Positions 9,372 through 25,375 of a stretch of 64,000 nt of DNA are shown one piece after another; the stretch's first letter is position 1, and every line of letters begins with the position of its first letter. The stretch is taken from IMG/VR virus record IMGVR_UViG_2974508059_000001, positions 128,001 through 192,000 of that record, one strand, 5' to 3'. Made by a program: the position numbers and the translations under genes. The DNA is from a virus. Taxonomy: Duplodnaviria > Caudoviricetes. Under the pieces are notes generated by a model that saw only the letters and a list, made by a program, of their open reading frames with translations, had not been told where the DNA came from and ran no database searches.

Positions 9372-9445
9372 TACTCTTTCCTCTTTCTCTTTGTGATTCG
9401 CACTGCGCGAAAGGTCATAACAAACCGCAAATAAAAAGAAGAAAG

Positions 9446-9463
9446 GGTGCCCCGAAGGGCACC
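9446..9463 (-). terminator. Intrinsic terminator closing the radical SAM operon
   Basis: GGTGCCC-ttcg-GGGCACC on the minus strand, followed by CTTTCTTCTTTTTATTT. Confidence 0.85.
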
Positions 9464-9467
9464 ACTG

Positions 9468-10109
9468 TTATTCTACCGACGGATTAAACTCCGCCGCGTC
9501 GAGTGAGGCGTAATCGCCCTGCTCCGCAAATGCACGGATACGGGTTTTGTACGCGGTCAACTGAACGTGCAGCTGTGCGTTACGTGCGACAATCAGAGAG
9601 TACAGCATCTCTGTGTCTTTCGCTTCCCACTCTTCCAGCGCTTGGTTATCGGCAGTCACCCAATACTCCGGCACGGTGTTCGTTTGCACGAAGCCGGCCA
9701 GGGTGGTCAGGGTCTCACCTGCGGTCTGGAACATGTGGTCTTTGTACGCAATGTCAGCCGTGACCGCTTCACCGTACGCTGCATTAGTGGCCTGAAGTTT
9801 CTTGGCCAGCAGAGTATAGCAATACGCTTTGGTCGACTGCAACTCTTTGAGGTAATCCTTCACCTGAATCCCCAACACGTCTTTGATAAACGTTTTGGTT
9901 TGGCGTAGGGTGTAGTTGGCTTCGAACTGGGTCTGCCCCTGCTCTTGCAACTGACGCAGTGCATCTTTCTCACTGAGTCCCTCTAAGAGTGCGTAGTGTA
10001 AACGCTTGGCCAGCGTGACATCGCCGTTGGGGTCAAAGAACAACCCGTTGCGGTCAATCTGGCCATCGCCGTTTTCAAACCGCGCTTTTATCTCGTCAGC
10101 ACTAAGCAT
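9468..10109 (-). CDS. DUF4376-like protein (tail-fibre-associated family)
   Basis: C-terminal FQT...LT.LA...YWVTADN...A.D...L...I......LH......K..I pattern. Confidence 0.6.
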   Translation of the reverse strand: MLSADEIKARFENGDGQIDRNGLFFDPNGDVTLAKRLHYALLEGLSEKDALRQLQEQGQTQFEANYTLRQTKTFIKDVLGIQVKDYLKELQSTKAYCYTLLAKKLQATNAAYGEAVTADIAYKDHMFQTAGETLTTLAGFVQTNTVPEYWVTADNQALEEWEAKDTEMLYSLIVARNAQLHVQLTAYKTRIRAFAEQGDYASLDAAEFNPSVE

Positions 10110-10636
10110 TCTTTCTCTCCCACGAATCCAACTTTGGTCAACATGTCATAGGACATGATTTCAAAGTCGATACGAAGATCCAGACGGTACTGCAAGTTCG
10201 GCAACGGCTGGTCATTTTCTTGGAACGCCTGCATGAACATCATGTCATCGAAGTAATGACACGCGCTCTCGGGGTTGCGCACCATCCAGACCGGGACATC
10301 CGGGAAGGACAGACACAGTGCCACCAGAGAATCACCGCCACGATCGATAGTGCCGGTACGCAGGATGTTTACCTTTGAAGCAGGGGCCGCCAGAATACGC
10401 GCTTCGAAACCCGGGTTACGCTTTTCGATTTCTGCTAACGAGTCGTGGCCGTTCTCCACGCACTGAATCGGCAGGACAACGTTAAGAGCAAAACGGTTAA
10501 TCAAACGCAGCCAGTGATCGTTGAAATCATCGGCAGGCACGATAGCGTGAATGTTAAACAGCTTATAATGCTGTAAGAACGCTTCGATTTTGCGACTATC
10601 GTACTTCGTAAAATTCTGGAGAAGCAGGCTTTTCAT
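10088..10636 (-). CDS. Hypothetical protein in radical SAM operon
   Basis: Overlaps both neighbours; no recognised motif. Confidence 0.65.
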   Translation of the reverse strand: MKSLLLQNFTKYDSRKIEAFLQHYKLFNIHAIVPADDFNDHWLRLINRFALNVVLPIQCVENGHDSLAEIEKRNPGFEARILAAPASKVNILRTGTIDRGGDSLVALCLSFPDVPVWMVRNPESACHYFDDMMFMQAFQENDQPLPNLQYRLDLRIDFEIMSYDMLTKVGFVGEKECLVLTR

Positions 10637-11993
10637 TCTTGAATTGTTCCTTGCGGTCAGTTTGTTCCACAGCCATGGTCATCTCACGGATGGCGGTGAC
10701 GTGTAAAGGCTGTTCTGCAGCTTCGCGGGTGAGTTTCTCTTCAACAGCAAAGTTGCGCTTCTGTTGGCACTGGTAACAGTTACAAACAGACTTGTCGTAC
10801 TGCGATTCGTACGACCCGAAACGTTGTTTCCACCACTGCGCCACTAAGAGCTTCGCGGTAGTCCAACCACACTGGCGACGTTCGCCGTGATACTCTTTAC
10901 GAGCGTCTTCTTCACCGTCGCCATTTTCATACGCCGCCGCCACGCACGAGGCACACAGGTGCTTCGCTGGGCAACCGATACACTGGTCAGGATACGACTT
11001 CCACTGTTCCTGAACTTCGGCCAGCAGTTTACCGCCGTCGGTGTTCACGATGGTTTGACCTTCGAGCTTACCGATGGCCTGACGGGTGGTTACCGTGGAC
11101 ATGAAGCGGTTACAACCGAAGATGTTACGGTCGAAGCCGAGACAAGTCATGTACACCGTGGTGCCGCAGTGCGGACGCAGACGTTGTGGGTCGTAGCGTA
11201 CAGAGTCATCATGGATGAGCTTCTCACGCCAGTCCGGGTTCCACAGTTGGTCAACATCCAGACCGTCCGGCAGCACGTGACCGATTTCAGAGTTCTGGTC
11301 TAAGTGCAGACCTTTCTCAATGAAATACTCCGCCACTTCGATGAACTGGTTGGCAATCTCGAGTGCCATCTGGCGCGGTAACACGTCTTCGAAAACGACG
11401 TTACCGTACAGACGACCGCCCCCGGTCACATCAATCAGCGACTTCATCCCAGCACCGTACTGCATCAGCGTTTCTTTCGTGAAGGTGGCTTTCACCCCAA
11501 TCTCACGAACACCGATTTCTTGCAGAAGCTTATAGCCGGCGACCGCTGCTTGGTAAGACCCTTGACGGGACGTGGTGAAGATACGGTACTTATCGTGGGT
11601 CTCGGGCAGACCATCGATAGAGACACCGATCGACAGGTAATCTTTCCAGCGATTCAGAATCTCCAGCGCCAGCGGTTTGTCAAACAACGTGCCGTTGGTG
11701 GAGATAGAGAACACGTAAGGCAGATTGTGCTTTTTGCACAGCTCTTCTGCGGTTTCGAAGGCCGCTTTCAGCAGCTTCGGCTGCATGAAGGGTTCGCCAC
11801 CGATGATATCGATGATGATACCGTCGATACCTTGGTTCTTCGAGAAGAAGCGATGTTTATCGCGATTAAAGCAGGCGTGAATAAAATCAACGACATCAGC
11901 GACTTTGTTATTACGCGGATACTTACGCTCGTAGCAATACTCACAGTCGAGGTTGCACGATAGGTTGGTGACTATCTGGTAGGTTGCATCCAT
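10596..11993 (-). CDS. Radical SAM/SPASM-domain peptide maturase
   Basis: CNLDCEYC (CxxxCxxC), IGGEP, STNGTL and SIDG motifs. C-terminal Cys clusters HCG..TC..GC, CIGC.....CASC, QC and CNCYQC. Confidence 0.92.
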   Translation of the reverse strand: MDATYQIVTNLSCNLDCEYCYERKYPRNNKVADVVDFIHACFNRDKHRFFSKNQGIDGIIIDIIGGEPFMQPKLLKAAFETAEELCKKHNLPYVFSISTNGTLFDKPLALEILNRWKDYLSIGVSIDGLPETHDKYRIFTTSRQGSYQAAVAGYKLLQEIGVREIGVKATFTKETLMQYGAGMKSLIDVTGGGRLYGNVVFEDVLPRQMALEIANQFIEVAEYFIEKGLHLDQNSEIGHVLPDGLDVDQLWNPDWREKLIHDDSVRYDPQRLRPHCGTTVYMTCLGFDRNIFGCNRFMSTVTTRQAIGKLEGQTIVNTDGGKLLAEVQEQWKSYPDQCIGCPAKHLCASCVAAAYENGDGEEDARKEYHGERRQCGWTTAKLLVAQWWKQRFGSYESQYDKSVCNCYQCQQKRNFAVEEKLTREAAEQPLHVTAIREMTMAVEQTDRKEQFKNEKPASPEFYEVR

Positions 11994-12005: not shown

Positions 12006-12890
12006 TTATTTTTTAATTGGATTAAGCCAGTTCATGATGTAACGGTAGCCGTGCTCACCGATGGCCAGTGCAATCTTGTTGCAGCCACGGTCCACGACCA
12101 TCTCAACGTTCTCAGGAACTTGCAGGTCGCCATTCGGTTGACTGACGATAATTTCACTACAGGCATTACACGCATCTTCTTCGAAGAACTTCTCGAGCTT
12201 GATGATGGTGTCACGCTTGTTAATGCGGTTGAGCTTACGCATGTTGTCTTGCAGACGCTCAAAGCCGTACACGAAGTTTAACACGTGGTCAGGCGACAGC
12301 ACTTTCTTCATCTGGTTATCGAACAGGTAGTTCATGCCGAGGAAACCAAGATGGTGAATGGCGTCTTGCATTTTCATCATGCCTTCGTGCCAGCGCATGT
12401 CCCCGATCTTCTCACGGGTTAACACTGACCAGAGGATAACGTTGTCCAGCTGGGCGATGACTTCAAACGCTTCGGTATCACCGGAACGAGCAAAGTCCAT
12501 TAAACCACGGGCATCATCTTCGTAACCGTCGATGGAGACCACAACACGATGGAAGGTTTTCAAAAACTCGACTTGCTCTAAACGTAACTTACGTCCGTTT
12601 GTGAAAAGATAGTGCACGGCAGAAGGACGTTCTACGCGCATCATCTCGACCGACTCGACGAGTTTACGGTAAGACAGTAACGGCTCACCCCCCGTCCAGA
12701 TGATCTCTTCCACACCGGGATTCTTTTTCAGTAACTCCATCATTGCCTCTTCATGGGTTTTACGAGACACGTCCCCTTTGACCATGTGAATCTCACCCGC
12801 ACAAAACGAACAATTGAGGTTACACTTCGACGTCAATGCTACGTTAATGGTCTTTGCAGGTGAGTAAACATCTTTACTTAACGTTCTCAT
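12006..12890 (-). CDS. Radical SAM protein
   Basis: CNLNCSFC, WTGGEPLL, FTNG and VSIDG motifs; C-terminal CNAC and GC. Confidence 0.9.
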   Translation of the reverse strand: MRTLSKDVYSPAKTINVALTSKCNLNCSFCAGEIHMVKGDVSRKTHEEAMMELLKKNPGVEEIIWTGGEPLLSYRKLVESVEMMRVERPSAVHYLFTNGRKLRLEQVEFLKTFHRVVVSIDGYEDDARGLMDFARSGDTEAFEVIAQLDNVILWSVLTREKIGDMRWHEGMMKMQDAIHHLGFLGMNYLFDNQMKKVLSPDHVLNFVYGFERLQDNMRKLNRINKRDTIIKLEKFFEEDACNACSEIIVSQPNGDLQVPENVEMVVDRGCNKIALAIGEHGYRYIMNWLNPIKK

Positions 12891-13800
12891 CCGTCATTCC
12901 GTACAGGCGACGTTGGAAAGAGAACAGTGGGTCGGTGTCTCGTACATCTTCACCCGCCTTTAACAGACGTGGTGAGCGATACGCATCGTACAGTGCGTTA
13001 AGAACGGATTGACGCTCACCCATGCGGATAAGGTCGTCCAGTTCAACCGGGGACGAAATAAACGGTTCCAGCGCAGCCTGTTGTTCGTCGGTGAACTCTT
13101 TCAGCTGTGACTGGAGCAGGAAGCGAATCAGTTTGCGATCATCCGCCGTGGAGTTCGGGACAGCGCCAAACTCAGTCTGACAGAGATAGGCCATCCACGG
13201 TTTACGGATGCGGAGTGTTTGCGCATGCGGGTCTGCGATGTAGACCCACTCTTGCTTCTCTGCATCCCATGCAAACTTATAACTAAACGCGAGTAAGTCT
13301 GCCAAGCAGTCGATATTCGCGGCTTCAAGGCCAGAGAACGGGTGATACATTTCACGGTCTTTCTCCACGCTTCCAGTGCCGGCTTCCACCAGTTTGAATA
13401 AGTGGGACCAGCTTCCGCAGTAATCGCTGCTGTAGCTACGCACGCACACCGGACGCATGCCGAGTTCTTTAAAGGACTCGAACATCAGTTCCAGTGGTGC
13501 ACTATAGTTCAGTACCGAATCTGTGAAAAAATACTTGTCGTTGACAAGCTTCCCGGTAAAACCAGAACCGCCTAAGGCGAACTGAATGGATTTCACGTTC
13601 AGCTTGCCCACCGTGGTCGCATCAATCACGGTGTACTCTTTTTTCGTAAAGTTGCGACCGCGAAGCTTAGGCCATTCAAACTGGTCCATGGCAATCAGCC
13701 GCAGCTCGTCGTTGATGTGTGCGTTAACACTGTCCGGTGACGAGATGTGAATTGGGTAATTCATGCTCGTGCGGTACGCAAGATGATCGTTACTCTTCAT
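12874..13800 (-). CDS. Hypothetical protein in radical SAM operon
   Basis: 308-aa ORF coupled between the precursors and the radical SAM gene. Confidence 0.7.
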   Translation of the reverse strand: MKSNDHLAYRTSMNYPIHISSPDSVNAHINDELRLIAMDQFEWPKLRGRNFTKKEYTVIDATTVGKLNVKSIQFALGGSGFTGKLVNDKYFFTDSVLNYSAPLELMFESFKELGMRPVCVRSYSSDYCGSWSHLFKLVEAGTGSVEKDREMYHPFSGLEAANIDCLADLLAFSYKFAWDAEKQEWVYIADPHAQTLRIRKPWMAYLCQTEFGAVPNSTADDRKLIRFLLQSQLKEFTDEQQAALEPFISSPVELDDLIRMGERQSVLNALYDAYRSPRLLKAGEDVRDTDPLFSFQRRLYGMTDENVK

Positions 13801-13812
13801 TAGGTTCCCCTG

Positions 13813-14022
13813 TTAACTCGGGAAGGAGACTGATTTCGCACCGCCTGAGCTACTCCAGCTACAGGTTCCGCCGCAGTTGTACGCGCCAGCACGAATCCCA
13901 CCCAAGTTGTTGGTGTTGTTACACGTTCCACGGTTGGCGATATAATCAACCGCCTGTCCCGTGGTAATATAGCGTTCGATGCTCGCCACGCGGTTACCGA
14001 TGTCTTTCAAGCTTACTGCCAT
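13813..14022 (-). CDS. Short precursor-like paralogue (3 Cys)
   Basis: AGGAG RBS. MAVSLK leader and CGGTCSWS motif. Confidence 0.8.
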   Translation of the reverse strand: MAVSLKDIGNRVASIERYITTGQAVDYIANRGTCNNTNNLGGIRAGAYNCGGTCSWSSSGGAKSVSFPS

Positions 14023-14031
14023 AGCCTACTC

Positions 14032-14460
14032 CTACGGTCCAGAACAGCCTGCTCCACAACTCCCGCCACAGCCACTACCGCAACTTCCCGAGCACCCGCC
14101 AGAACATTTGCCTGAACAGTTACCCGAGCATGTGCCAGAACAACCGCCGGAGCAGCCGCCGCCACAGTTACCGCCACAGCTGCCACTACAACCACCGGTG
14201 CAGCTAGATGAACAGTTGCCCGAACAGGATGACGAACACCCAGACGAGCAGTTACCCGTACAGCCACCAGAACAGCCGTTACCGCACGTCCAGCTACAAG
14301 AGCCGTTACAGTGCAGTGCCGCTGGGGTGAAACCGTTGAGTAAATCAGCATTATTAGTAGTGCGTCCACCGATGTAGTTTTGCACGCCTGCTTCAGTTTT
14401 TAGTGCGGTGTTCTCAATATTGACAACACGGTCACGCACCGATTTTAATGAAATCGCCAT
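14032..14460 (-). CDS. CXXX-repeat precursor peptide (23 Cys)
   Basis: AGGAG RBS. 50-aa leader followed by 23 perfect CXXX units. Confidence 0.88.
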   Translation of the reverse strand: MAISLKSVRDRVVNIENTALKTEAGVQNYIGGRTTNNADLLNGFTPAALHCNGSCSWTCGNGCSGGCTGNCSSGCSSSCSGNCSSSCTGGCSGSCGGNCGGGCSGGCSGTCSGNCSGKCSGGCSGSCGSGCGGSCGAGCSGP

Positions 14461-14468
14461 TTCCGCTC

Positions 14469-14858
14469 CTAAGGGCTGCTACAACCAGCACTGCAGTTAC
14501 TGCTACAGGTGCCAGAGCAACCGCTAGAGCAGCTGCTGCCACATGAACCTGAACAGCCGCTTGAACAGCCACCAGAACACGAGGATGAGCAACCTCCCCC
14601 GCAACCACCAGAACACGAGCCCGAACAGTTACCTGTACACACGCCGCTACAGCTTCCTGAGCAGCTCGAGCAACCGTGACTACAACCTGACGAACACGTC
14701 CAACTGCACGACCCGTTACAACGGGCCCACGTATCAGGTTGGCCTGCCAATAGATTCGCATTGTGAACTTTGCTGTTCACCTGCCCCTCTACGGACGCGC
14801 CGGTTGCTGCTTGGACTCGGTCAAGACGGGCACTTAGTTCTTTAAGTGATATCGCCAT
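14469..14858 (-). CDS. CXXX-repeat precursor peptide (21 Cys)
   Basis: AGGGAAGG RBS. 46-aa leader followed by 21 Cys units (one CXX). Confidence 0.88.
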   Translation of the reverse strand: MAISLKELSARLDRVQAATGASVEGQVNSKVHNANLLAGQPDTWARCNGSCSWTCSSGCSHGCSSCSGSCSGVCTGNCSGSCSGGCGGGCSSSCSGGCSSGCSGSCGSSCSSGCSGTCSSNCSAGCSSP

Positions 14859-14921
14859 TACCTTCCCTTTTTAATAAGACACGGGCACTCGCCATATAGA
14901 CGAGGCCCGTGTGTAATTATA

Positions 14922-16127
14922 TTAACGTGAACCGGCATCAGCCTGTACATCGTCACGTGTGGTCAAGTTGGCGTTGACGTGCACGTTTGCCTGAACCACG
15001 CCGCCATACTGCTTGTGCAGGTACTGGGTGTGTGGATCGGCGGCAGACAGGTGGTTAGCGAGCGTCTGGTTAACACTGGCGATGTTGCCCTCGGTCGTGG
15101 TGACACGACGGGTCAGTGCGGTCAGGTCAACACGCAGCTGGTCAATCTGCTGCTGTGCGTCACCGGCTCCGGACTTGAGGTCATCAATCTGGTCTTGCAA
15201 CCCAACGGCCGTTTGCTTCAACTCATTCACGGTTTTCTGTAACGTCAATACCAGTGAATTGAGGTTGGCCACAATCAACGTCATCTTCTGGTAGTTTTGG
15301 TCTACCGTGTTCAGTTGGTCGTTGAAGGTGGTCAGCGAACTGACGATGGCATCAATGCGCCCACCCAGTGCCGTATCAGCAGCCTTAAGGTCGCCAATCT
15401 GGACGAGGGTTGCATCGATAGCTGCCTGCACGCCGGCAATCAACGCACGGATTTCGGTTGCGGTCAAACCATCAATATCGTGGATATCAAGGTTGTGCAC
15501 GTTACCCGTGGCATTGATGTGGGCATTCAGCGCGTCCAAGAAGTTATTCTTGATGTCGCCGATGATGTCTTTGATTTTCTCAAGCTGAACGGCATCGCCT
15601 GAACCAATCGCATCCAGAATACCCGAGAGCAGGGTAATGACGTATTCAAAACCAAAGATATCGCCAACGTCTTTAAACGCCGGGGCACCCGGTAGCGTAT
15701 CCGGGAAATCGATTAAGTCGGCAAAGTTCACCTTCTTATTATCAATGCCCAGAATCGCAATCGCATTTTCAATCGCAGTCACGTTCGCAGACATTGGCCC
15801 ACCGACAACCTGAGCGGTCACGATGATGTCTGTTGGAATGCTGCTGTTGGTCACTACAACTGCCATCACGACTTCTTTGTTGCCCGAGAGCTTCATGTAG
15901 GCCGGATGAGCGAAAATCAGTTCGTAGTCGGTACCACGTTTATACGGCGTGGTGGGCGAGTTCGTGGCACGCAGTTTAAAACTGTCTGCGTAAAACGGAC
16001 CTGCCGGAAAAGCAAAAGACCGGTTAACTTTACCGGAACCCAAGACCACGGGGATACTTACCGCGTTCGATGTCAGAGTTCCTTTAAGGTCAAGCGGATA
16101 CTGGAAAATAATATCACTCATCTCCAA
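14922..16127 (-). CDS. Tail-fibre-like virion protein with coiled coil
   Basis: N-terminal GPFY...GTDY domain shared with the three large upstream genes, heptad region, and HLSAADPHTQYL fibre motif. Confidence 0.7.
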   Translation of the reverse strand: MEMSDIIFQYPLDLKGTLTSNAVSIPVVLGSGKVNRSFAFPAGPFYADSFKLRATNSPTTPYKRGTDYELIFAHPAYMKLSGNKEVVMAVVVTNSSIPTDIIVTAQVVGGPMSANVTAIENAIAILGIDNKKVNFADLIDFPDTLPGAPAFKDVGDIFGFEYVITLLSGILDAIGSGDAVQLEKIKDIIGDIKNNFLDALNAHINATGNVHNLDIHDIDGLTATEIRALIAGVQAAIDATLVQIGDLKAADTALGGRIDAIVSSLTTFNDQLNTVDQNYQKMTLIVANLNSLVLTLQKTVNELKQTAVGLQDQIDDLKSGAGDAQQQIDQLRVDLTALTRRVTTTEGNIASVNQTLANHLSAADPHTQYLHKQYGGVVQANVHVNANLTTRDDVQADAGSR

Positions 16128-16165: not shown

Positions 16166-19100
16166 TTAAGACGACAAATTACTCGTTGGGATTAACATAA
16201 GATTGATGGTTACCTCACCCAGCGTGACCATCTTTCCGTCAGGCCCGAAGAACTTCGAGGCGACAACGACTTCCCGGTTCGACCCATTCGCGCGCTCCAA
16301 GAACGGCGGACAGTAGCTGATTTCCGGAGCCACCACACTCACCACCCCTGTGGTGTCTGCCACCGGAACATAGACATGGGAGACGGTCTCCAACACGTTG
16401 AGGTTACCGGACTGCGTACCTTGGTCTGAGGTGAATGCCACCACCGACGTCCCACTCGAGCGGATTAACTCGCGTTGGGTTGTCCCATTCCAATCGTAGG
16501 CAATAAAAGCAATGTGGCAGATGGTCCCACCGGCGGTACCTGCCTGAATGACTTCGATCCCAACCGTGTGCTGCCCGTTAGACACCGGGAAGTCCTGGGT
16601 GGCGAGCGCGTTTGACCCTTTCGAGGTAATGCCGGATGCCACACGCACGCCATCAATGTAGACGTGACACATGTCATCCACCGCAAACTTAAGTCGCAGC
16701 GTGCCCCCGGTGGTGGTCACTTTGAACTTGGTCGCATACGTACCGTAGCCCGGAATCGTCCGTGGGTTGATGTCAATCCAGATAAGCCCCAACGCATTTG
16801 CATCCGGGTTCTCCGCTGCTGTCACGGCCACTGCACGGGCAGGAGCCCAGAACAGCTCAGGCAACACTGCCCCGGAATACCACGGCTGGGAAGCCGGGAC
16901 ATAACGGTTAATCAGCGGACGAGACAACAATGATCCCACCGCCAGTGACAGTGCGGACTGACCCACGTACCCATCACCCGAGGTCGCAATCGGTAACGGT
17001 TCCAGCAGACCGAGCGGTGACTCTGCCCGTTCACGCACCACGTTCGAGCCGTGGCTGTACGCAACCCCCTCATGCTCCTCTAACTGACGTACCGCCCCCA
17101 GACGTTTCACCGGGGTAATGTTCTCCTCGATGATACGGCTGCTGTCGGTCTTGACGTAACCCACGTAAAGCAGGTTACTGCTGTCAGGGTAACGTTCGGT
17201 ACTGACCCGGTACCGCGCCTTCGTGGTGCCTTCGTCTGGGTAGACTTCAGCGTGGAAATAGAAGGTCTGGTTTCGGTAGTCACTGAACGCCGACGAGAAG
17301 TCAATGCTGTACTGGTCGAGCACGTACTCTTTCGAGTTAATGAACAGTCGCTCTGACTCGGTCAGGTAAAGAATCCACCCTTCCGCCGTCTTCACGCCCG
17401 CCAACACCACCGGTTGCGCATTCGCCGGGGAACCAAACGGACTGGCCATGAAGTCCGCAATCGGATACGCGTCGCCTGAGGAGAACACCGGGTCCAGTTT
17501 GAAATACGAATTCACCATCGCATTCAAATCTTTCACCCACACCCACGTGTTTGGGCTGTACGTTGGTCGGTCAAGCCCCAGTGCCCCGGTGGAGCTGGTC
17601 CACTGGTTACCGGTCAGGGTCAACACCGCACGGAAGTTCAATGCACCCCCATTCCCGACTTGGGCGATACGCAGCACGGACGGCAGATAGAGCACAAACT
17701 TCTGCCCATCGTTGGACACGAGTTGCGGCTGACCAAAGCGGCGGTCTTTTCCACCAAAGCTGAAATCCAATCCGACGTTGGCGATGTTCAAGTCAAGGTC
17801 GTTCTGGAACGTCAACAGTTGGAGGGTGCTGGAGCTAAACGCGAGAATCCCGTTGGAAACCGACGGGTACATCACAAAGTAGTAATGGTCGATTTTATTC
17901 ACACCGTCTACAAAGCGTTGTGCCGTGGCCTGTCCCAAGAAGAGCTGCTGCGGTGTCCCAATCGCAAAGCCCCACAGTGCGACATACAGTTTCCCGATTT
18001 GGTCAGCGGCCATCAGTCGCTCGGATGCGTAGCCGTTCGCTGCACCCGCTGGGGCGTTAGCCAACATGATACTGCGGACTTTCGCCCACTCGGTATCGTT
18101 CAGCGTCAGTTTGTCGGCGGTAAAGTTCGGGTTCCCGGTCACGTTCTTGTACTGCACCGTTTCAGGCTTAGTAAAGAAGCACCCGTTCAGCGTGCCTTTA
18201 TCTGCCGCATTCACTTTCACCATCGCCAGCTGGGACATCGCAGCGTAGGTTGCCGTGGTGATAACACGCCGGTTGTTGGTTGGACCAAAGCCCCCGTAAC
18301 CCGGTACGTCGTAATCCGTGTCGGTTGAATACAACACCTCAACGCACAACGCATCCTTGGTACCGGTGAGCCAGATGGCTTTAGAGTCCCCACCGAAGAA
18401 CAGCGGGTAGGCCATGCCAGAGGCGTACACAGACCCACGTCCTTGGTCGAGTTTGGTGGTGTTACCCACAACCGCACCTGTCGTCACATCGGCTGACAAC
18501 GAGTCGTAATGGTCACCCCCGCCCGGAACACCCATCGTGACTATCTGCACCGGGACATCACTGTCATTACCAACCGAAAGCACAGCGACCTTGTCATCGT
18601 GGTGTGCCACAAAGGCACGCTGGTTGGCTTGGGTCCCTGTCCACTTCAGTGGGTAGTTCGTGGTCAACAAATCCACGCCGGTTTTGTACTTCGCACCGGT
18701 ATCCAGTAACTGCAGTGGGAAGATTTCCGGGTGCTCCAGTGTCACCGTCAGGGTATCGAAGTCGAGCGTGAATGTCGTGTACCAGTTCTTGAAGCTCAAT
18801 GACTCGGTTGCTTTCGCCAGCCAAATCGTTGGCGTCATTGCCACCCGTAACACTTCATCCTCTTGCCCCAACACCCGGTTACACGTTGGCCCGTGCACCA
18901 GATTGCGCCCTACCGTGAAGGTACTGAGTGCGGCTGGGCTGATGTACGCTACCCGGTCGGTCTCGGTGTTGGCGGTGTCGTACCCCCCTTCGGCACGGAG
19001 CAGTAACCACGAACCTGCCACGCCCTTCATCCCGTTCAAGGTTTCAAGGGTAAAGGCCACGTCTTGTGCGCCGATGCTATTGAGTGAAACCGACGCCAAG

Positions 19101-21253
19101 GCCACACGGTAACTGTCGTTCGCCAGTCGGGTGCGCAGCAGATACACTTTACTGCCGTAGACCACGAGGTCATCCGTTTCCCCGGCGGGCACCATTGCCG
19201 CATTACTGCCTGCCACATCCATGATGGTCGGGAACGTCACTCGCACCACATTCAGGTGGCGATTGTGGTCGGCTGTCCCGGCGAGGTCAACGAGGTAATA
19301 CGCCCCGTCGCTGCCTAAACAGATAAGGGCATCCTGCCCCGGCACCACCACTGCACTGAGTGTCACCCCCGGGTACTTGGTGGTCATCCCGGCTGGCTGA
19401 TAGCGCTGTGAAGTTTGTTGGACGTTGCTGAGCGTGTTGTCGTCGTTAAAGGTACCGTAAGCGTAATAGATGTGGCGATCAGTCAGACCGTCCGTTCCGT
19501 TACGCAGAATATACAACCGGTCCCCTTCAAAACGCATCGCCCCGTAGAACTGGCTGTTGTTCTTGCCATACCCTTCGTAGTTACCCTGTGCCGGGATAGG
19601 CAGGAACCCGAGGTTGCCGTACGACGCCCCAATAACCGCCCACGTTGGAATCAGACCGTTGGCTTTGCTTTCCAAATCCGCCAAAGTCTTCTCAAAGAGA
19701 TACCCCTGTTTAGCCGTCACCACACGGTCTGTGCTGGCATCGATAATATCCCAGAGTAACACCAAGCCGGCTGCCGAAGAGCTGGCGTAGGGTACGTTGG
19801 TCACGTCTGCGAGGGTATGGGTGTGGTTGGTCAGGGATTTGTTGGCCACGGCGGCGGTTAACGCTTTGGTTACCGGCTTATCAAGCGGTGCGGTGTTCTG
19901 CATCTTCTCGACACCGACGTCCGCAGGCGTCAGGGTTAAGGTCTGGTCTGCATCAAAACCTTTGCCGTTGACGGTGTAAGTGTCATCGACGTAGTTCCCC
20001 AGCAAATCCCGCATCGCGGTAATACCCGCCTGTGAAATTGCATAACCGTCACTGAGTGAGGTACGGTTGGACGTGACCTTGATCAGACCCCGCACCCCCA
20101 CTGAGGCTTCGGGCAGGTTCGCTTCCAGACGGAACGGGGCGTAGGACTTGCCTGACCCGTAGACCTTCACGGTTTCCGTAGAGGACATGTACGCGTTAGC
20201 TGCTTTGAGTTTCACCTCGTGCAGGTACATCTCCACCATGTCGGGTGTAATCAAATACACCCCGTTGAAGACCGGAGCCAATGCATCAGGGCCCGAGTGC
20301 ACCATTAAGGTGTTCAGCCCCGCTGACATCTCCACCGCCACACCCGGGTTCGTGTTCGCACTGTCTGCGGTGAACCGTAAAGTCTTTTTGGTGGAGACCA
20401 ACACGTTCGGCCCTTTGAAGGTGATAACGTGGTCGTTGTTGGCGGTGGTGTACGTCAGGACATTGTTGTTGAGAACACGCAAGCGACCGAACACGTCATT
20501 AAACGCGGTGTCGTTACGCATCAGCAAATCAACGTGCTTTTGCTGCAAACCGGTTGTGGCCATCAGGGTCACGAGCTGGTCAATGGTGCGACCAAATGCC
20601 CGGGTGGCGTCCACGGCTTTATCCGTGACCTTCAAGGCCCCGATGTCATCCGCAGTGTACGAATGCCCGTGGGACTTCAGCAGGTGGTGCTGATACATCC
20701 CATCGTCGAACACTTTCTTGCCGGTTTGATAGATGAGCTCAGTGACTTCACTGTACGCGGCATCCATGTCCCCTGCCCGCTTAATCAGGCCCAAACGAAT
20801 GTCATTTAACGCGGAGACAATCTCATCGCGGGCAATGGCTTCGTCCAAGTCCTGTGGCGGGTCGATAGCTGGAATGGTCGGCGCATAGCGCATCAACGCA
20901 GACCAGTCTTCGTTACGGGGGTCTTTCAGGTCACTGCTGACCAGCCATTTGCCAATCTCGCTCTGCGGTACGCGGTAATCACGCCCCACAGCGTAGATGC
21001 TGTATTTGATGGCATCGTGGTTCAGCAGCATTATCCCGCCAAACACCGCGGCTTGGAATGCCTCAGCGGCTTCTTTGTAATAGTAGCCGAGGTAATAGTC
21101 CATGCCCTCGATAAGCGGGACATCATTTAAATCGGTGATAACCAGCCCGGTGCGGTAGAAAGGGCCTTCCGGCGGAATAACCGTATTGAAACGGTTTGGG
21201 AACGTCGAGACTTTCAACGTGCCTTCAAACTGGGCCGGGGTTTCCGTCGCCAT
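16166..21253 (-). CDS. Large tail-fibre-like virion protein
   Basis: 1695 aa. GPFY..G.DY N-domain, HTH motif, NTAPLDKPV fibre repeat, beta-rich C-terminus. Confidence 0.7.
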   Translation of the reverse strand: MATETPAQFEGTLKVSTFPNRFNTVIPPEGPFYRTGLVITDLNDVPLIEGMDYYLGYYYKEAAEAFQAAVFGGIMLLNHDAIKYSIYAVGRDYRVPQSEIGKWLVSSDLKDPRNEDWSALMRYAPTIPAIDPPQDLDEAIARDEIVSALNDIRLGLIKRAGDMDAAYSEVTELIYQTGKKVFDDGMYQHHLLKSHGHSYTADDIGALKVTDKAVDATRAFGRTIDQLVTLMATTGLQQKHVDLLMRNDTAFNDVFGRLRVLNNNVLTYTTANNDHVITFKGPNVLVSTKKTLRFTADSANTNPGVAVEMSAGLNTLMVHSGPDALAPVFNGVYLITPDMVEMYLHEVKLKAANAYMSSTETVKVYGSGKSYAPFRLEANLPEASVGVRGLIKVTSNRTSLSDGYAISQAGITAMRDLLGNYVDDTYTVNGKGFDADQTLTLTPADVGVEKMQNTAPLDKPVTKALTAAVANKSLTNHTHTLADVTNVPYASSSAAGLVLLWDIIDASTDRVVTAKQGYLFEKTLADLESKANGLIPTWAVIGASYGNLGFLPIPAQGNYEGYGKNNSQFYGAMRFEGDRLYILRNGTDGLTDRHIYYAYGTFNDDNTLSNVQQTSQRYQPAGMTTKYPGVTLSAVVVPGQDALICLGSDGAYYLVDLAGTADHNRHLNVVRVTFPTIMDVAGSNAAMVPAGETDDLVVYGSKVYLLRTRLANDSYRVALASVSLNSIGAQDVAFTLETLNGMKGVAGSWLLLRAEGGYDTANTETDRVAYISPAALSTFTVGRNLVHGPTCNRVLGQEDEVLRVAMTPTIWLAKATESLSFKNWYTTFTLDFDTLTVTLEHPEIFPLQLLDTGAKYKTGVDLLTTNYPLKWTGTQANQRAFVAHHDDKVAVLSVGNDSDVPVQIVTMGVPGGGDHYDSLSADVTTGAVVGNTTKLDQGRGSVYASGMAYPLFFGGDSKAIWLTGTKDALCVEVLYSTDTDYDVPGYGGFGPTNNRRVITTATYAAMSQLAMVKVNAADKGTLNGCFFTKPETVQYKNVTGNPNFTADKLTLNDTEWAKVRSIMLANAPAGAANGYASERLMAADQIGKLYVALWGFAIGTPQQLFLGQATAQRFVDGVNKIDHYYFVMYPSVSNGILAFSSSTLQLLTFQNDLDLNIANVGLDFSFGGKDRRFGQPQLVSNDGQKFVLYLPSVLRIAQVGNGGALNFRAVLTLTGNQWTSSTGALGLDRPTYSPNTWVWVKDLNAMVNSYFKLDPVFSSGDAYPIADFMASPFGSPANAQPVVLAGVKTAEGWILYLTESERLFINSKEYVLDQYSIDFSSAFSDYRNQTFYFHAEVYPDEGTTKARYRVSTERYPDSSNLLYVGYVKTDSSRIIEENITPVKRLGAVRQLEEHEGVAYSHGSNVVRERAESPLGLLEPLPIATSGDGYVGQSALSLAVGSLLSRPLINRYVPASQPWYSGAVLPELFWAPARAVAVTAAENPDANALGLIWIDINPRTIPGYGTYATKFKVTTTGGTLRLKFAVDDMCHVYIDGVRVASGITSKGSNALATQDFPVSNGQHTVGIEVIQAGTAGGTICHIAFIAYDWNGTTQRELIRSSGTSVVAFTSDQGTQSGNLNVLETVSHVYVPVADTTGVVSVVAPEISYCPPFLERANGSNREVVVASKFFGPDGKMVTLGEVTINLMLIPTSNLSS

Positions 21254-21340: not shown

Positions 21341-24300
21341 TTAGTTCCAAACACCGAGGTCGGTGCTGACCCCTTCTTCTGTTCGCATGATGCCCGTGAC
21401 CCAGTCCCACATTGCGGTGGTCAGGTTAAACGGATGGTATTTGCACAGGAAGAGGGTTGGGGCAGTGTCTTCCATCACCACAACCGCAGCATCGTCATTA
21501 AAGTCGATGGTGCCCACAGTCTGTGCCCCGCTCTTAAAGATAAGTGTGGACTCTAAGAAGAACGGGCTGGCAATGGCCAGTGGGACAAACTCAATGTACA
21601 ACAAATCACCGGCAAAGCCTGTGACCGTTGGCGTCAAACGACTGCTTGCCACGGCCCCGTTCTGCGGGCTGTTGTTGTGCACCGATTTCCCATTGACATA
21701 ACTGCGGAAGTTGTAATTGGCGTTTACCGTCCAATCCAGCGCATCGAAGTCCGCAGGGGCTTCCACGACCAAGGCAAAGCGTCGGCTGTACGCAGCGCCC
21801 CGATAAGGGTTGGCTGTGCTTGACCAGACTTTCGCCCGGGTAATCTCGGCACCCACACGCTGTTTCGACAGGATACGATCCGGATGTGCTACCAACGGAC
21901 TGTACTTACTGCGGGACGGCATAACCGCATTACCGGCAGTGGGCAGTCCGATAAACTCCGTTGCCCCCGACAGTGCTGCCCAGTTTGCAGGTATCCCACC
22001 ACTGAGTAACTTCTGAACCACTCCACGACCATTCCCCTGTACCGCGTAATCGTTGGCACGGGTGTAGGCTTCAAAGAGGCTACGGAAGTAACTGTAGTTG
22101 TGGTAATCGGCAGACGGGTAGATACCGGCATGCAGGATATGCTGACTTGTGGAGGCCAGCTCCTTACGGTTAAAGCCCACAAAGCCATTCATGCAATCCC
22201 GAACATCAAACGGCAGTTCGTACGTAACTTTGCGAATAATCGGTGTTGACCGGTTGTCCTCAAACCGCACCAGTTCCACACGCAAGGTGTTGGTCTTCGG
22301 TACGTAGCGGTAACGCACGATATAACGCGACGCTCCTGTCTCCTTGACTTCCTCACCCCAAACACTCGGGTCAGTTGCCTCCACCAAACTCATGTCGTAC
22401 GGGTGCACATCGAACGGCGTAACCGCCGGTGCTGCACGGTTAGCACTGTTGGCAGCGTTTACGGGCAACTCCGGCATGTACCCATATTCGGCCTCATTGG
22501 TGAACACGTTGATGTGGAAGAATTTGTGCTGACCGTTACGCGCTTTCTGTGCAAAGGTCAGCCACAAGTCCAACTGGGTGTTACCCAGCACACGACGAAT
22601 CGGAATATACAGCGCCAGTGAGCCCTCGTACGTGAGCAGGTTGTTCTCATACGGGTTCGCCGGGGTCATCCACTGCTGCGGACCACTGTACCGGGTATCC
22701 ATCCACATCGTCAGGGGGCCGGTACCGTCAACCGTCGGTTTGAGTGTGAGCACACTCGCTGCGAGGTTTGCTGTACCCGCCACACCCGCCACAATGTAGT
22801 CAGGTTTGTCGGAGGCAATGGGCAGACGTTTCATCCCCGGGTTATCCGAGAGATACCAGTCACTCGACTCAGGGACATGTGCCGGAATCAGATTCTGGTG
22901 CGTACCCATCTCTTGGAACTGACCAAAGTCTGCCACCGTGTCAAACTCAACCGTTGTCGTGGTCATTCCTGCCGGACCACAATCCACATACCCGACGTAG
23001 GTCTGGGTAATGCTGATGTCGTTGGAGGCAATCGGTTCAGCACGACCAAACAGTGAATTGGTGCTCATGTTGAGATACACAAAGTGGCGATTGTTACGCG
23101 GGTTGATAAACTCGCTTAACTGGGCCAGCTTCGTATCAGGCGATGATGCCACGATAGGATAGTTGTTATCCCAAATCTCAAATGCCAATGCTGCCGGTTT
23201 GGTGCTGTCGTTGCAATCCGCCCGTAAGGCGACCGTGTGCACCGGGGATGCCGTATCCACATCAAATACCCCGTCAACCGTCGGCGCACCGGAAGTCACG
23301 AGGGTGCCGTTGATGTAAACACTGATGTTTCCCCCGGCCGAGGCGATCACCCTCAGACGGCCTGAGGAGCACGCTACGCGCTCTTTAGCCAGAACTGAGA
23401 TAATGGACAGATCGCCCTGCTGCGAGGCGCTGAGGCCGATTGTGCGTGCGTATAAAGGAAGTGTGGTGGCACTGGAGGTTAAGGCCAACTGCGTATTGTG
23501 CAGAACACCCTTTGCCCAGTTACGCTCGATGACATTCGTCGGCTGGTACCAGTTGAACATCGGGGTGGTTTCCAAGTTCACTGACCCGGTTACCCGGCCT
23601 TCTTTGCGACCACCGTTGGCCATGTAGAAGTATTTCAAGTCCTGCACTGACAACGCCAGCTTGGAACTCGCTACCGACCACGTTGCCCCGCCAATCACCG
23701 CATAGTCCGTCACGGCTTTGGGGTTGGCCCCTTTGAGGTTCTCTGCCACGGCTGCCAGTTGCAGCTGCAGTTGATACAACACATTGGGTGCCACACCCCG
23801 ACCGTCTGCCAGCGAGGCTTCGGTTGGCGCAATACGAATCACCCCAAGGTCGGCTTCAGTAGCATTCGGGATATTGAGGGAGGCCCACGCATGTTTGTGG
23901 CCTTTGTCAGACTTGCCCGCGAGTGCGGTTTGCAAATCACCTGACAACGGTTTGTCCACATCCGCGGTGTTGTCCGCATCCCCTAACCCGATATCCGCTT
24001 TACTGAGGACACGGGCACCGTCGTCCATGGCCACCGAGTTCAGTCGGGTCGCTTTCGGGACGAACTGCCCAAGCGTCGTATCGTACGCTGCCACTGCACC
24101 CGGGGTGACTGCTTGTCCGGTTGCCACATCGCTCTTCGCAGTCACCAATGTCACCGCGCCGTCGGTTGTGGTCGTGGCATCCGGCAGGGTGACGTTCCAT
24201 TTCACCGGGTCGGCTTTAGAGCCTTTCCCACTCGGGGTCAAGCCTTGCGTTTCAGACTGGACGTAAAGCTTGGAGTCATCCGGGTCAGTTCCGCCCCCGT

Positions 24301-25375
24301 CATCTTCGGCTTGGTAGTCCATCAGCGTAGTGGTGGTCAGTAGGGTTACCCCATTCACCGAGAGCTTATCCATGCCGAGTGCGTTGCCTGAAGACTCGAT
24401 ACGCATGACGTTCGAACCCGCGACCCATTCGAAATACGCCACATCGCCTTTATAGCCTGCCCGCAGTGCAATCCCACCCGTGGTGGTCAGGTCAAAGCCG
24501 GTGTCCGTAAAGAGCACGCTGGACGCCCCGTTCTTGGATTTAAAGAGTGGACGGTTGGCCTGTACCAACTGCACAAACGTACCTTGGATGTCTTTAAACG
24601 CCCACGTCTCGATATACTTGTCGATATCGGACTGCTGCAAACCCAGTGCCCGAATCTCTGCGGTTAACTCCCGCAGGGTTTTCCCGTAGGCGAGGAAGGT
24701 ATCCGCCGCTTTCAGGGAAATCGGGTGTGCCCCCATTTGGGTGACATTGGTTCCGTGGGGGTTTTTGGCATTGACGTGTGACGGATAATCGAAGGCTTCA
24801 ATCTCTGTGTGCAGACTTTCGACGGTGACTTTCAGCTGGTCAAGTTTGGCTTTGATTTGATCGTTGGCCGAACCGGCATCGAGTTCCACGTCATGAATCG
24901 CAGACGCCACGTACTTCTTGTTCAGCAGGTCATGCCACGAGGTGGCTGCCGGCATCACGGGATACAAAGAAGGGCGGTTGTCCACATTCAGCCAGCGTGC
25001 ACTGGTTGGGTTGTTCAAATACTTCACTAACGTGTCGAAGGATTCCAACAGTCCGTCGTAATACGTCCCGCCCAAGTGCTGACCGGTGAAAATCAGTGAG
25101 CCCTTGATGGCCGGGTTAATCACGTTAACCCCGCAGAACACCGGACTGGCCACTGAGTCGTCCAGCTCTGTCAGCTGATAAGCCAACTCGTAATCGACGC
25201 CCTGAGTCAGAGGGTTAGAGGCAGTTGCCTGCCTCACGGAAAACCCAGACTGGAAGAACGGACGGTGCTGGAGTACCAGCACACGTTCCGAGGCGATGTC
25301 CGATTCGAGAATACGCTCCTCAGTAAACTGATTGGTCTTGGCGGTGCCTTTCCAATCGTAAGGAATCGCACTCAT
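21341..25375 (-). CDS. Large tail-fibre-like virion protein
   Basis: 1344 aa. PFF..GVDY N-domain, NPHG, DIGLGDADNTADVDKPLS and HKH motifs. Confidence 0.7.
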   Translation of the reverse strand: MSAIPYDWKGTAKTNQFTEERILESDIASERVLVLQHRPFFQSGFSVRQATASNPLTQGVDYELAYQLTELDDSVASPVFCGVNVINPAIKGSLIFTGQHLGGTYYDGLLESFDTLVKYLNNPTSARWLNVDNRPSLYPVMPAATSWHDLLNKKYVASAIHDVELDAGSANDQIKAKLDQLKVTVESLHTEIEAFDYPSHVNAKNPHGTNVTQMGAHPISLKAADTFLAYGKTLRELTAEIRALGLQQSDIDKYIETWAFKDIQGTFVQLVQANRPLFKSKNGASSVLFTDTGFDLTTTGGIALRAGYKGDVAYFEWVAGSNVMRIESSGNALGMDKLSVNGVTLLTTTTLMDYQAEDDGGGTDPDDSKLYVQSETQGLTPSGKGSKADPVKWNVTLPDATTTTDGAVTLVTAKSDVATGQAVTPGAVAAYDTTLGQFVPKATRLNSVAMDDGARVLSKADIGLGDADNTADVDKPLSGDLQTALAGKSDKGHKHAWASLNIPNATEADLGVIRIAPTEASLADGRGVAPNVLYQLQLQLAAVAENLKGANPKAVTDYAVIGGATWSVASSKLALSVQDLKYFYMANGGRKEGRVTGSVNLETTPMFNWYQPTNVIERNWAKGVLHNTQLALTSSATTLPLYARTIGLSASQQGDLSIISVLAKERVACSSGRLRVIASAGGNISVYINGTLVTSGAPTVDGVFDVDTASPVHTVALRADCNDSTKPAALAFEIWDNNYPIVASSPDTKLAQLSEFINPRNNRHFVYLNMSTNSLFGRAEPIASNDISITQTYVGYVDCGPAGMTTTTVEFDTVADFGQFQEMGTHQNLIPAHVPESSDWYLSDNPGMKRLPIASDKPDYIVAGVAGTANLAASVLTLKPTVDGTGPLTMWMDTRYSGPQQWMTPANPYENNLLTYEGSLALYIPIRRVLGNTQLDLWLTFAQKARNGQHKFFHINVFTNEAEYGYMPELPVNAANSANRAAPAVTPFDVHPYDMSLVEATDPSVWGEEVKETGASRYIVRYRYVPKTNTLRVELVRFEDNRSTPIIRKVTYELPFDVRDCMNGFVGFNRKELASTSQHILHAGIYPSADYHNYSYFRSLFEAYTRANDYAVQGNGRGVVQKLLSGGIPANWAALSGATEFIGLPTAGNAVMPSRSKYSPLVAHPDRILSKQRVGAEITRAKVWSSTANPYRGAAYSRRFALVVEAPADFDALDWTVNANYNFRSYVNGKSVHNNSPQNGAVASSRLTPTVTGFAGDLLYIEFVPLAIASPFFLESTLIFKSGAQTVGTIDFNDDAAVVVMEDTAPTLFLCKYHPFNLTTAMWDWVTGIMRTEEGVSTDLGVWN

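Follow-up and report, generated by a model that had tools for sequence, protein, structure and literature searches.

The locus lies in a 64,000-nucleotide stretch (positions 128,001 to 192,000) of the IMG/VR record IMGVR_UViG_2974508059_000001, referred to here as the window, which belongs to an SPN3US-like jumbo phage with a 245-kb genome. Three small minus-strand genes, here called paralogues A, B and C, are located between a set of genes for tail and fibre proteins and a gene unit encoding a helper protein and two radical-SAM enzymes (Table 1).

Table 1. Features of the Cys-ladder locus and its surroundings, in window coordinates
Position	Strand	Feature	Supporting observations
9446..9463	-	Terminator-like hairpin with a T-rich tail that closes the unit	
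9468..10109	-	213-aa last gene of the unit	SPN3US counterpart gp161 is annotated as DUF4376; no Pfam hit above the cut-off here
10088..10636	-	182-aa conserved protein of unknown function, overlapping its neighbours	Syntenic in all 16 related contigs; no Pfam hit
10596..11993	-	465-aa radical-SAM/SPASM enzyme (SPN3US gp163 equivalent)	PF04055 at 5e-12; CxxxCxxC starts at residue 13
12006..12890	-	294-aa radical-SAM enzyme without a SPASM domain (SPN3US gp164 equivalent)	PF04055 at 1.2e-14; phrog_1802; syntenic in all 16 related contigs
12874..13800	-	308-aa helper protein (SPN3US gp165 equivalent)	phrog_8030 at E 3e-134
13813..14022	-	Paralogue C, 69 aa: full head with RVASIE and CGGTCSWS, no ladder (3 Cys)	phrog_6085
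14032..14460	-	Paralogue B, 142 aa: 50-residue head with RVVNIE, ladder of 23 Cys at strict 4-residue spacing	phrog_6085; TIGR04114 repeat at 24.4 bits (cut-off 20)
14469..14858	-	Paralogue A, 129 aa: 46-residue head, ladder of 21 Cys spaced 4-4-4-4-3-4...	phrog_6085 at E 7e-28; TIGR04114 repeat at 23.7 bits (cut-off 20)
14879..14912	-	14-bp hairpin between the gp167-like gene and paralogue A; weak U-run, possibly a partial terminator or a stabiliser	-28.1 kcal/mol, z -2.9
14922..16127	-	401-aa gp167-like tail protein: fibre-family N-terminus plus a coiled coil, no distal domain	phrog_2163 at 1e-101; N-terminus homologous to those of the large fibres (BLASTP 6e-8 and 5e-4)
16166..21253	-	1695-aa fibre/baseplate protein (SPN3US gp168 family)	Contains DATRAFGRT, residue 244 of the stop-to-stop frame
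21341..25375	-	1344-aa fibre paralogue	Contains DTFLAYGKT, residue 225 of the stop-to-stop frame
25386..29048	-	1220-aa fibre paralogue	Contains DSALAFGRT, residue 438 of the stop-to-stop frame

The translations contain every motif listed in the initial annotation, and we conclude that its observation is correct. Specifically, A starts with MAISLK followed by LKELSARLDRVQ, NANLLAG and CNGSCSWT; B starts with MAISLK followed by LKSVRDRVVNIE, NADLLNG and CNGSCSWT; and C starts with MAVSLK followed by LKDIGNRVASIE, NTNNLGG and CGGTCSWS. The three proteins are clear homologues: a profile HMM of the head scored them at E 5e-29 to 6e-24, while nothing else among the window ORFs reached E 0.1. Across 48 heads, positions 3, 5, 8, 12 and 15 are 94–100% I/L/V/M, R11 is 81% conserved, E/D16 88%, G43 96%, and C51, G53, C55 and S56 100%. 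The annotation also stated that no double-Gly cleavage site is present at the junction of leader and core. Indeed, none abuts the first Cys; however, the conserved Gly of NAxxLxG, 8–9 residues upstream, is preceded by G, A, S or N (GG in C and in many orthologues) and, therefore, a GG/GA-type site is not excluded by sequence alone.

To examine whether the locus is conserved, we compared it with 16 related phage contigs. All of them carry the trio in the same order in the synteny gp167-like > A > B > C > helper > radical-SAM > radical-SAM/SPASM > 182-aa protein > DUF4376-like, and all 17 jumbo genomes have exactly three paralogues. A always has 21 Cys and the same irregular 3-residue gap, B has 20–23 Cys and C has 2–4. 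The trio, including the short third paralogue, recurs in the divergent systems L024, L026, L033 and L034 (L numbers denote loci from the comparison; number and order were found conserved in three divergent systems), and relatives of the helper occur in L021, L033, L034 and L035. Three sequences with odd C-termini (P0003, P0004 and P0010) were set aside as likely frameshifted or chimeric assemblies. Other searches returned nothing: a word-indexed homologue search with the head of B gave no candidates, a head-pattern scan of 185,579 species genomes gave no relatives, a head profile search of PDB sequences gave nothing below E 1.7, and the best ESM Atlas score with the head was 0.80, which is at noise level.

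Residues 5–16 of the head form two heptads with I/L/V/M at positions 5, 8, 12 and 15, and this register corresponds to the published R(g)-h(a)-x-x-h(d)-E(e) motif of trimeric coiled coils (PMC3653964). In its strict form, R-[ILVM]-x-x-[LIV]-E, the motif is present in B and C, while A has RLDRVQ, with Gln in place of Glu, and fits the relaxed form only. Family-wide, the strict form occurs in 22 of 51 heads and a relaxed form in 40 of 51, compared with a background of 1.3e-4 per residue; of note, these counts are not independent because the sequences are related. An AlphaFold model of the B monomer based on a 36-sequence alignment (mean pLDDT 43) has two modest helices, residues 5–19 and 23–36, with block-mean pLDDT of 60–69, and a disordered tail at 30–38 without a fold for the ladder; a monomer model carries no information on oligomers.

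The initial annotation further proposed that NAxxLxG recalls the DATRAFGRT, DTFLAYGKT and DSALAFGRT segments of the large upstream fibres. These segments do occur in the three fibres, but the proposed likeness is not supported: the head HMM did not hit any fibre in the window, and we estimate that so loose a pattern occurs about once by chance in 4,260 residues. By contrast, head residues 8–32 match the 29-residue repeat of a 654-aa phage fibrous protein (hmmsearch E 6.6e-4 over 1.84 billion proteins; hhalign 89%, P 2.3e-6), although this match is weak and is built from short, low-scoring and compositionally biased units (bias 30.5 of 36.3 bits). An RTX-type repeat protein (P0021) that hit the head profile at 4.9e-8 was rejected as a summed chance match because its five stretches each score 8.4 bits or less on their own.

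More distant relatives carry the same Cys ladder fused to tail-fibre N-termini in P2-like and lambda-like tail modules. The protein at L035:4345-5052 hits phrog_4209 and phrog_3100 at about 3e-6 and phrog_6085 at 6e-12 and lies after Baseplate_J and Tail_P2_I; the ladder protein P0025 hits phrog_5073; and P0027 lies directly after a gpJ-like protein. Moreover, the closest cellular relatives of the maturase lie next to baseplate, tail-fibre or minor-tail genes of prophages in 8 of 12 bacterial loci inspected. In the 76-kb contig of L025/L026, however, the neighbours are not recognisably tail genes.

Next, we considered the enzymes. In the SPASM enzyme, C13, C17 and C20 of the cluster motif and seven cysteines in the C-terminal half (C276, C294, C338, C341, C347, C350 and C375) are invariant in 13 diverse relatives, as in radical-SAM/SPASM enzymes. 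Its best NCBIfam hit is TIGR04115 (113.8 bits, cut-off 350; residues 7–365 aligned to positions 7–341 of the 359-position model), followed by PapB (107.7 bits, cut-off 340; E 7e-31) and, therefore, it belongs to neither family by threshold and the reaction cannot be read from family membership. These low scores, and a density of about 21 Cys in about 80 residues, which is metallothionein-like, would fit ladders that fold around metal ions or disulphides while the enzymes, which fall below every family cut-off, act on another target. We consider this very unlikely, because the ladder protein, the SPASM enzyme and mostly the helper travel together through very different phage backgrounds, and because the only two radical-SAM genes in the genome directly follow the ladder genes.

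A second alternative, which we also regard as unlikely, is an ordinary RiPP, in which the head is a leader that guides the enzymes and is cut off by a host or unknown protease, and the cross-linked cores are set free at lysis to act as an antimicrobial, a metal chelator or a signal. In favor of this, A and B pass the TIGR04114 cut-off while C, which lacks the ladder, has no hit; the best hits of the enzyme are peptide maturases; the ladder is predicted to be disordered, as RiPP cores are; and a conserved G/A/S-Gly pair precedes the first Cys. However, a search for Peptidase_C39 found none in the genome, while the control was positive in 7 of 14 genomes, and no exporter was seen, although this search was limited to one protease type and cleavage by a host protease remains possible. 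Both enzymes begin at the CxxxCxxC motif (residues 13 and 22), which leaves no room for an N-terminal leader-binding domain; the helper gave a good AlphaFold model (pLDDT 84.7, pTM 0.81) that matched no solved fold (Foldseek TM 0.1–0.17; best Z in a wide VIA search 4.5), which does not exclude a leader-recognition (RRE) role for this protein. In addition, conservation of the very N-terminus (MAISLK) is unusual for leaders, relatives carry N-terminal regions of 95–155 residues, two of them matching tail-fibre families, in place of a leader, the system keeps to tail-fibre slots in unrelated phages and prophages, and the number of paralogues and of cysteines is fixed.

In SPN3US, gp167 is an abundant tail protein and gp168-170 are tail proteins. 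The retrieved rows of the virion table list nothing for gp164-166, and gp163 is only a trace non-virion protein. The three ORFs, at L002:8598-8990, 9001-9405 and 9421-9627 in SPN3US, are not listed in the virion proteomics; they are not annotated in the SPN3US record, where gp166 is called in another frame, and the genes are mis-annotated or missing in most GenBank records of these phages. Because the enzymes are missing as virion proteins from these rows, tail-fibre modules often hold chaperones and the unit ends with a gene whose SPN3US counterpart is annotated DUF4376, the modified proteins could instead act inside the cell, as a scaffold or chaperone for the neighbouring fibres or as a metal or iron-sulphur store. 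We consider this improbable, because missing enzymes say nothing about their unannotated substrates, fusions of the ladder to fibre N-termini fit a structural part better than a chaperone, and the fixed ladder length suggests a structure.

Based on these observations, our working hypothesis, to which we assign a probability of roughly 0.6, is that the three genes encode a fixed set of small fibre-type proteins that are probably enzyme-modified parts of the tail fibre and not leader-plus-core peptides. What the analysis establishes is the architecture, its conservation and its gene neighbourhood: a head with a two-heptad coiled coil, a second helix and a linker N-x-x-x-L-x-G...Y that ends in the invariant C-x-G-x-C-S-W, after which A and B continue into ladders with a Ser/Gly/Thr filling while C stops after the first unit. 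The chemistry, the oligomeric state and the place in the virion are inferred, and on present evidence no data place these proteins in a virion. In this view, the heads stay on the proteins and bundle three chains, possibly as A:B:C, and the bundle would dock on the tail-fibre apparatus, most likely at the C-terminal end of the neighbouring gp167-like stalk, which shares only its N-terminus with the fibre family and whose last 40 residues are its most conserved part. The two radical-SAM enzymes and the helper would modify the ladders in the cytoplasm before or during assembly, by analogy with related maturases most likely by thioether cross-links from Cys sulphur to nearby carbons, and the result would be a stiff, protease-resistant distal element of defined length. 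The interpretation in the initial annotation, that a retained leader docks a (hetero)trimer with crosslinked or metal-loaded Cys tails in a modified virion appendage, is partly supported.

A bolder version of this hypothesis, which we hold tentatively and judge somewhat less likely than not, is that the distal element of the tail fibre is a (hetero)trimer of RiPP-like proteins with retained coiled-coil heads that dock on a stalk protein and with ladders covalently laced by phage-encoded radical-SAM enzymes. If so, this would be the first virion structural protein matured by radical-SAM chemistry and would recast the whole catalogued CXXX-repeat peptide family, which is uncharacterised, as a tail-fibre maturation system of phages and prophages. 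Because radical-SAM/SPASM maturases are known for making small secreted peptides, cross-linking of part of a virion would be a new use of the chemistry and a new way of building a host-recognition organ, and would add unlisted parts to the virion parts list of SPN3US, a model giant phage.

Compared with known systems, short helical segments with a trimer register and a small, separately encoded protein that completes a fibre end are themes of segmented coiled-coil fibres and fibre-tip proteins (T4 fibritin; gp38 adhesin of T2/S16-type phages), but the PDB profile search gave no sequence match, no fold match was found, and none of those proteins is known to be modified by radical-SAM enzymes or to have a Cys ladder. 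With the short parallel three-stranded coiled coils of coronin-1, ccbeta and GCN4p-M3, the heads share Arg at g, I/L/V/M at a, L/I/V at d and Glu at e (Gln in A) within about two heptads, while their own trimeric state is inferred. The ranthipeptide maturase PapB likewise is a SPASM radical-SAM enzyme acting on a run of evenly spaced cysteines, in its substrate freyrasin, and its product is a chain of small thioether rings; however, the ladders have almost no Asp or Glu acceptors of the CX3D/E type (Ser 39%, Gly 33% and Thr 12%, with Asp and Glu not among the 12 commonest non-Cys residues), the enzyme here has no room for an N-terminal leader-binding domain, and the targets are 129–142-residue proteins in a virion gene module. 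Another of the closest known systems is the NCBIfam CXXX-repeat system (TIGR04114 target repeat, TIGR04115 maturase), which is catalogued as a peptide-maturation system and for which literature searches found no paper on its chemistry, on any link to phage tails or on radical-SAM enzymes in tail-fibre modules, nor a description of the present system. Both have a Cys at every fourth residue in a Ser/Gly-rich tract next to a radical-SAM/SPASM enzyme, and the system described here differs in the low score of the enzyme, in having two radical-SAM enzymes and a phrog_8030 helper, and in having three paralogues with a coiled-coil head.

To examine the gene neighborhood of the three small proteins, we first mapped the genes on the minus strand and found that they lie in a tight row (table below), in which the gaps between P1, P2, P3, and the 308-aa gene are 8–12 bases. 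The initial annotation had described these proteins as starting with MA(I/V)SLK and as carrying the motifs N(A/T)xxLxG and C(N/G)G(S/T)CSW(T/S), and this observation held because every motif listed is present in the translations. The virus record, of which the window covers bases 128001–192000, is 244,950 bp long. Its nearest GenBank relative is Erwinia phage pEa_SNUABM_11, genus Wellingtonvirus, with 82.5% identity over 5.7 kb, and the gene row is shared with Cronobacter phage CR5 and Salmonella phage SPN3US. Of note, the strong hairpin between the 401-aa gene and P1 has a weak U-run and could set the ratio of stalk to ladder transcripts. The antisense frames of the ladder genes are also open and would encode Pro/Gln/Glu-rich repeats, but these are most likely mirror artefacts of the Cys/Ser/Gly codons and not genes.

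Coordinates of the cysteine-ladder gene row and of features in related contigs (window positions unless a contig is named)
Feature	Position	Strand	Remarks
Large fibre gene	25386-29048	-	
Large fibre gene	21341-25375	-	
Large fibre gene	16166-21253	-	
401-aa gene (gp167-like)	14922-16127	-	
Hairpin	14879-14912	-	14 bp; -28 kcal/mol, z -2.9
P1 (paralogue A)	14469-14858	-	
P2 (paralogue B)	14032-14460	-	
P3 (paralogue C)	13813-14022	-	
308-aa gene (phrog_8030 helper)	12874-13800	-	
294-aa gene (radical-SAM)		-	
465-aa gene (radical-SAM/SPASM)		-	
Two further genes		-	
Terminator-like hairpin	9446-9463	-	end of the row
Antisense open frame	13979-14377	+	132 aa
Antisense open frame	14509-14679	+	56 aa
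Cysteine-ladder genes, SPN3US	L002:8598-9627		mis-annotated in GenBank
Cysteine-ladder genes, pEa_SNUABM_11	L001:15302-16348		mis-annotated in GenBank
Cysteine-ladder genes, CR5	L003:6597-7624		mis-annotated in GenBank
Extra short radical-SAM paralogue	L012:6418-7326		between A and B
Extra short radical-SAM paralogue	L014:6418-7326		between A and B
Trio with four radical-SAM genes	L033:3492-11239		84-kb phage contig

We next assigned the gene products to families. P1, P2, and P3 all belong to phrog_6085, a family of unknown function, and P1 and P2 pass the CXXX target-repeat model TIGR04114 of NCBIfam. The 465-aa protein is a radical-SAM/SPASM enzyme and the 294-aa protein is a second radical-SAM enzyme without a SPASM domain; these two are the only radical-SAM genes in the genome. 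The 308-aa protein belongs to phrog_8030 and gave a confident AlphaFold model (pLDDT 84.7, pTM 0.81) with a beta-rich N-terminal half and a helical C-terminal half that matches no solved fold among the structures searched, and it may represent a new fold. The 401-aa protein belongs to phrog_2163, shares about 220 N-terminal residues with the large fibres, continues as a coiled coil, and has no distal domain. Its last 40 residues are its most conserved part, with a column identity of 0.82–0.86 compared to 0.51–0.54 in the coiled coil just before.

To determine how widely this arrangement is conserved, we performed a pattern scan of IMG/VR, which returned 16 contigs of 107–248 kb. Each of these has exactly three paralogues in the same order: A is 127–132 aa and always has 21 Cys with the same single 3-residue gap after the fourth Cys-Cys interval, B is 130–142 aa with 20–23 Cys, and C is 68–74 aa with 2–4 Cys. 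The whole row, from the gp167-like gene to the DUF4376-like gene, is syntenic in all 16 contigs. While the heads have diverged to 34–58% identity in all but the two nearest relatives, the paralogue set and the cysteine count are fixed, which points to a defined structure; a drifting low-complexity array would not keep them. In two jumbo contigs (L012 and L014), an extra paralogue of the short radical-SAM enzyme (about 40% identity) is inserted between paralogues A and B. The same A, B, C trio also appears in the much more distant systems L024, L026, L033, and L034; in the phage contig L033, two of the four radical-SAM genes lie before the trio and two after it.

As a test of the suggestion that the N-terminal segments are trimerization elements, we aligned 48 heads and found that positions 3, 5, 8, 12, and 15 are 94–100% I/L/V/M, while R11 is 81% conserved and E/D16 88%. 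Positions 5-8-12-15 make a 3-4-3 a/d pattern, and R11-h12-x-x-h15-E16 is the R(g)-h(a)-x-x-h(d)-E(e) motif, which is described as specifying parallel three-stranded short coiled coils (PMC3653964). The strict motif is present in 22 of 51 heads and a relaxed form in 40 of 51, and it also occurs in L024, L033, and L034, whereas the background is 3 occurrences in 22,844 residues of window ORFs. P2 (RVVNIE) and P3 (RVASIE) carry the strict motif while P1 (RLDRVQ) carries the relaxed form. It is important to note that these counts are inflated by relatedness and that the cited paper warns that the motif is not exclusive to trimers. AlphaFold on monomeric P2 gave helices at residues 5–19 and 23–36, with a block-mean pLDDT of 60–69 for residues 1–30, and a ladder with pLDDT 30–38 that is predicted to be disordered.

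To examine whether the head is fibre-like, we performed a profile search of 1.84 billion representative proteins, which found 27 hits, most of which are family members. Three of the hits are informative. P0026, a 654-aa phage fibrous protein, has about ten tandem 29-residue units that align to head residues 7–32 (E 6.6e-4, but with a bias of 30.5 of 36.3 bits), and a profile–profile comparison of the head with those units gave a probability of 89% and a P of 2.3e-6 over 25 columns. The other two, P0025 and P0027, have the same linker and ladder behind N-terminal regions of 140 and 155 residues, respectively, and the N-terminus of P0025 hits a tail-fibre family, phrog_5073. The search also returned P0021, a 1061-aa metagenomic RTX-type calcium-binding repeat protein that hits the head profile at E 4.9e-8 through five weak repeats ("RLERVEFADGT...QV"), which we take as a chance or convergent match. 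By contrast, the head HMM found nothing in the window's own fibres. The initial annotation had likened the NAxxLxG motif to the segments DATRAFGRT, DTFLAYGKT, and DSALAFGRT of these fibres; however, we estimate that the pattern [DN][AST]xx[LFA]xG is loose enough to occur about once by chance in their 4,260 residues, and this part of the argument fails.

We then considered the context of cysteine-ladder proteins elsewhere. In L023, the locus of P0027, the ladder protein lies directly after a lambda-type gpJ central fibre and is followed by a radical-SAM gene, while in L021, the locus of P0025, it is followed by a radical-SAM gene, a phrog_8030 relative, and then a radical-SAM gene. In L035, a P2-type module (GpU, gp25/W, Baseplate_J, Tail_P2_I) is followed by a 161-aa fibre-like protein, the 236-aa ladder protein, a radical-SAM gene, the helper, and a radical-SAM gene; residues 4–72 of this ladder protein match tail-fibre N-termini (phrog_4209 and phrog_3100, about 3e-6) and residues 66–176 match phrog_6085 (6e-12). 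In L034, the ladder protein lies after two fibres with Peptidase_S74 domains, and in L033 after a gp167-like protein. One phage contig (L025/L026) has no recognizable tail genes nearby. The nearest cellular relatives of the SPASM enzyme are 22–35% identical over the best matching segment, come mostly from gut and anaerobic bacteria, and sit next to ladder proteins of 184–667 aa. In 8 of 12 of these loci inspected (L036, L043, L044, L045, L046, L047, L050, and L051), the flanking genes are baseplate wedge, tail-fibre, or minor-tail proteins; two more (L052 and L064) have only non-specific phage-family hits, and two (L037 and L041) have none. In Margulisiibacteriota and Termititenax genomes (L038–L042), proteins of 495–667 aa carry 79–122 cysteines in CXXX-type ladders next to a related SPASM enzyme, and because the one locus of these that was checked (L041) showed no phage genes nearby, a non-phage version may exist.

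In the available proteomics of SPN3US, gp167 is an abundant tail protein with 880 spectral matches in wild type compared to 5 in tailless particles, gp168–170 are also tail proteins, and gp163 is a trace non-virion protein. The retrieved rows run from gp163 straight to gp167 with nothing for gp164–166. However, the SPN3US record annotates gp166 in the wrong frame and leaves the three true ORFs out altogether; if that annotation served as the search database, these spectra never tested whether the three proteins are in the virion. Mis-annotation is general: many records show no feature at all under the match, pEa_SNUABM_11 annotates A in another frame and omits B, and CR5_157 is on the opposite strand. 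The GC-rich repeat is open in several frames, which misleads gene callers.

Our working hypothesis, as the most economical account, is that these are small fibre-type proteins in which the N-terminal head is kept and bundles three chains, that the Cys ladders are modified by the adjacent enzymes, and that the assembly joins the tail-fibre apparatus. In this view, the gp167-like stalk is the obvious docking candidate because it has a conserved end, no distal domain, and an adjacent gene. While the sequence architecture, its conservation, and the gene neighborhood are documented by the analysis, the retention of the head, the trimer, the modification, and the place in the virion are inferred. 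The interpretation in the initial annotation, that a retained leader docks a (hetero)trimer with cross-linked or metal-loaded tails in a virion appendage, is partly supported. An ordinary released RiPP is less likely because no C39 peptidase was found in the genome, neither enzyme has room for an N-terminal leader-binding domain, the extreme N-terminus is conserved, and relatives replace the "leader" with long N-terminal regions, some of which match tail-fibre families. A non-virion assembly role and a purely metal-binding role of the ladders remain possible.

The trimer motif in the head, the match of the head to a fibrous repeat, the fixed trio and fixed cysteine counts, the conserved end of the gp167-like stalk, and the omission of the three proteins from the SPN3US annotation are new in this work. 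The pairing of CXXX repeats with a radical-SAM enzyme itself is already catalogued in NCBIfam but, as far as our literature searches reach, is uncharacterized, and we found nothing linking it to phage tails. The best hits of the 465-aa enzyme are TIGR04115 (113.8 bits) and PapB (107.7 bits), both far below their cut-offs. By analogy with such systems, thioether formation is the best guess for the chemistry, but the ladders lack the Asp/Glu acceptors of PapB substrates.
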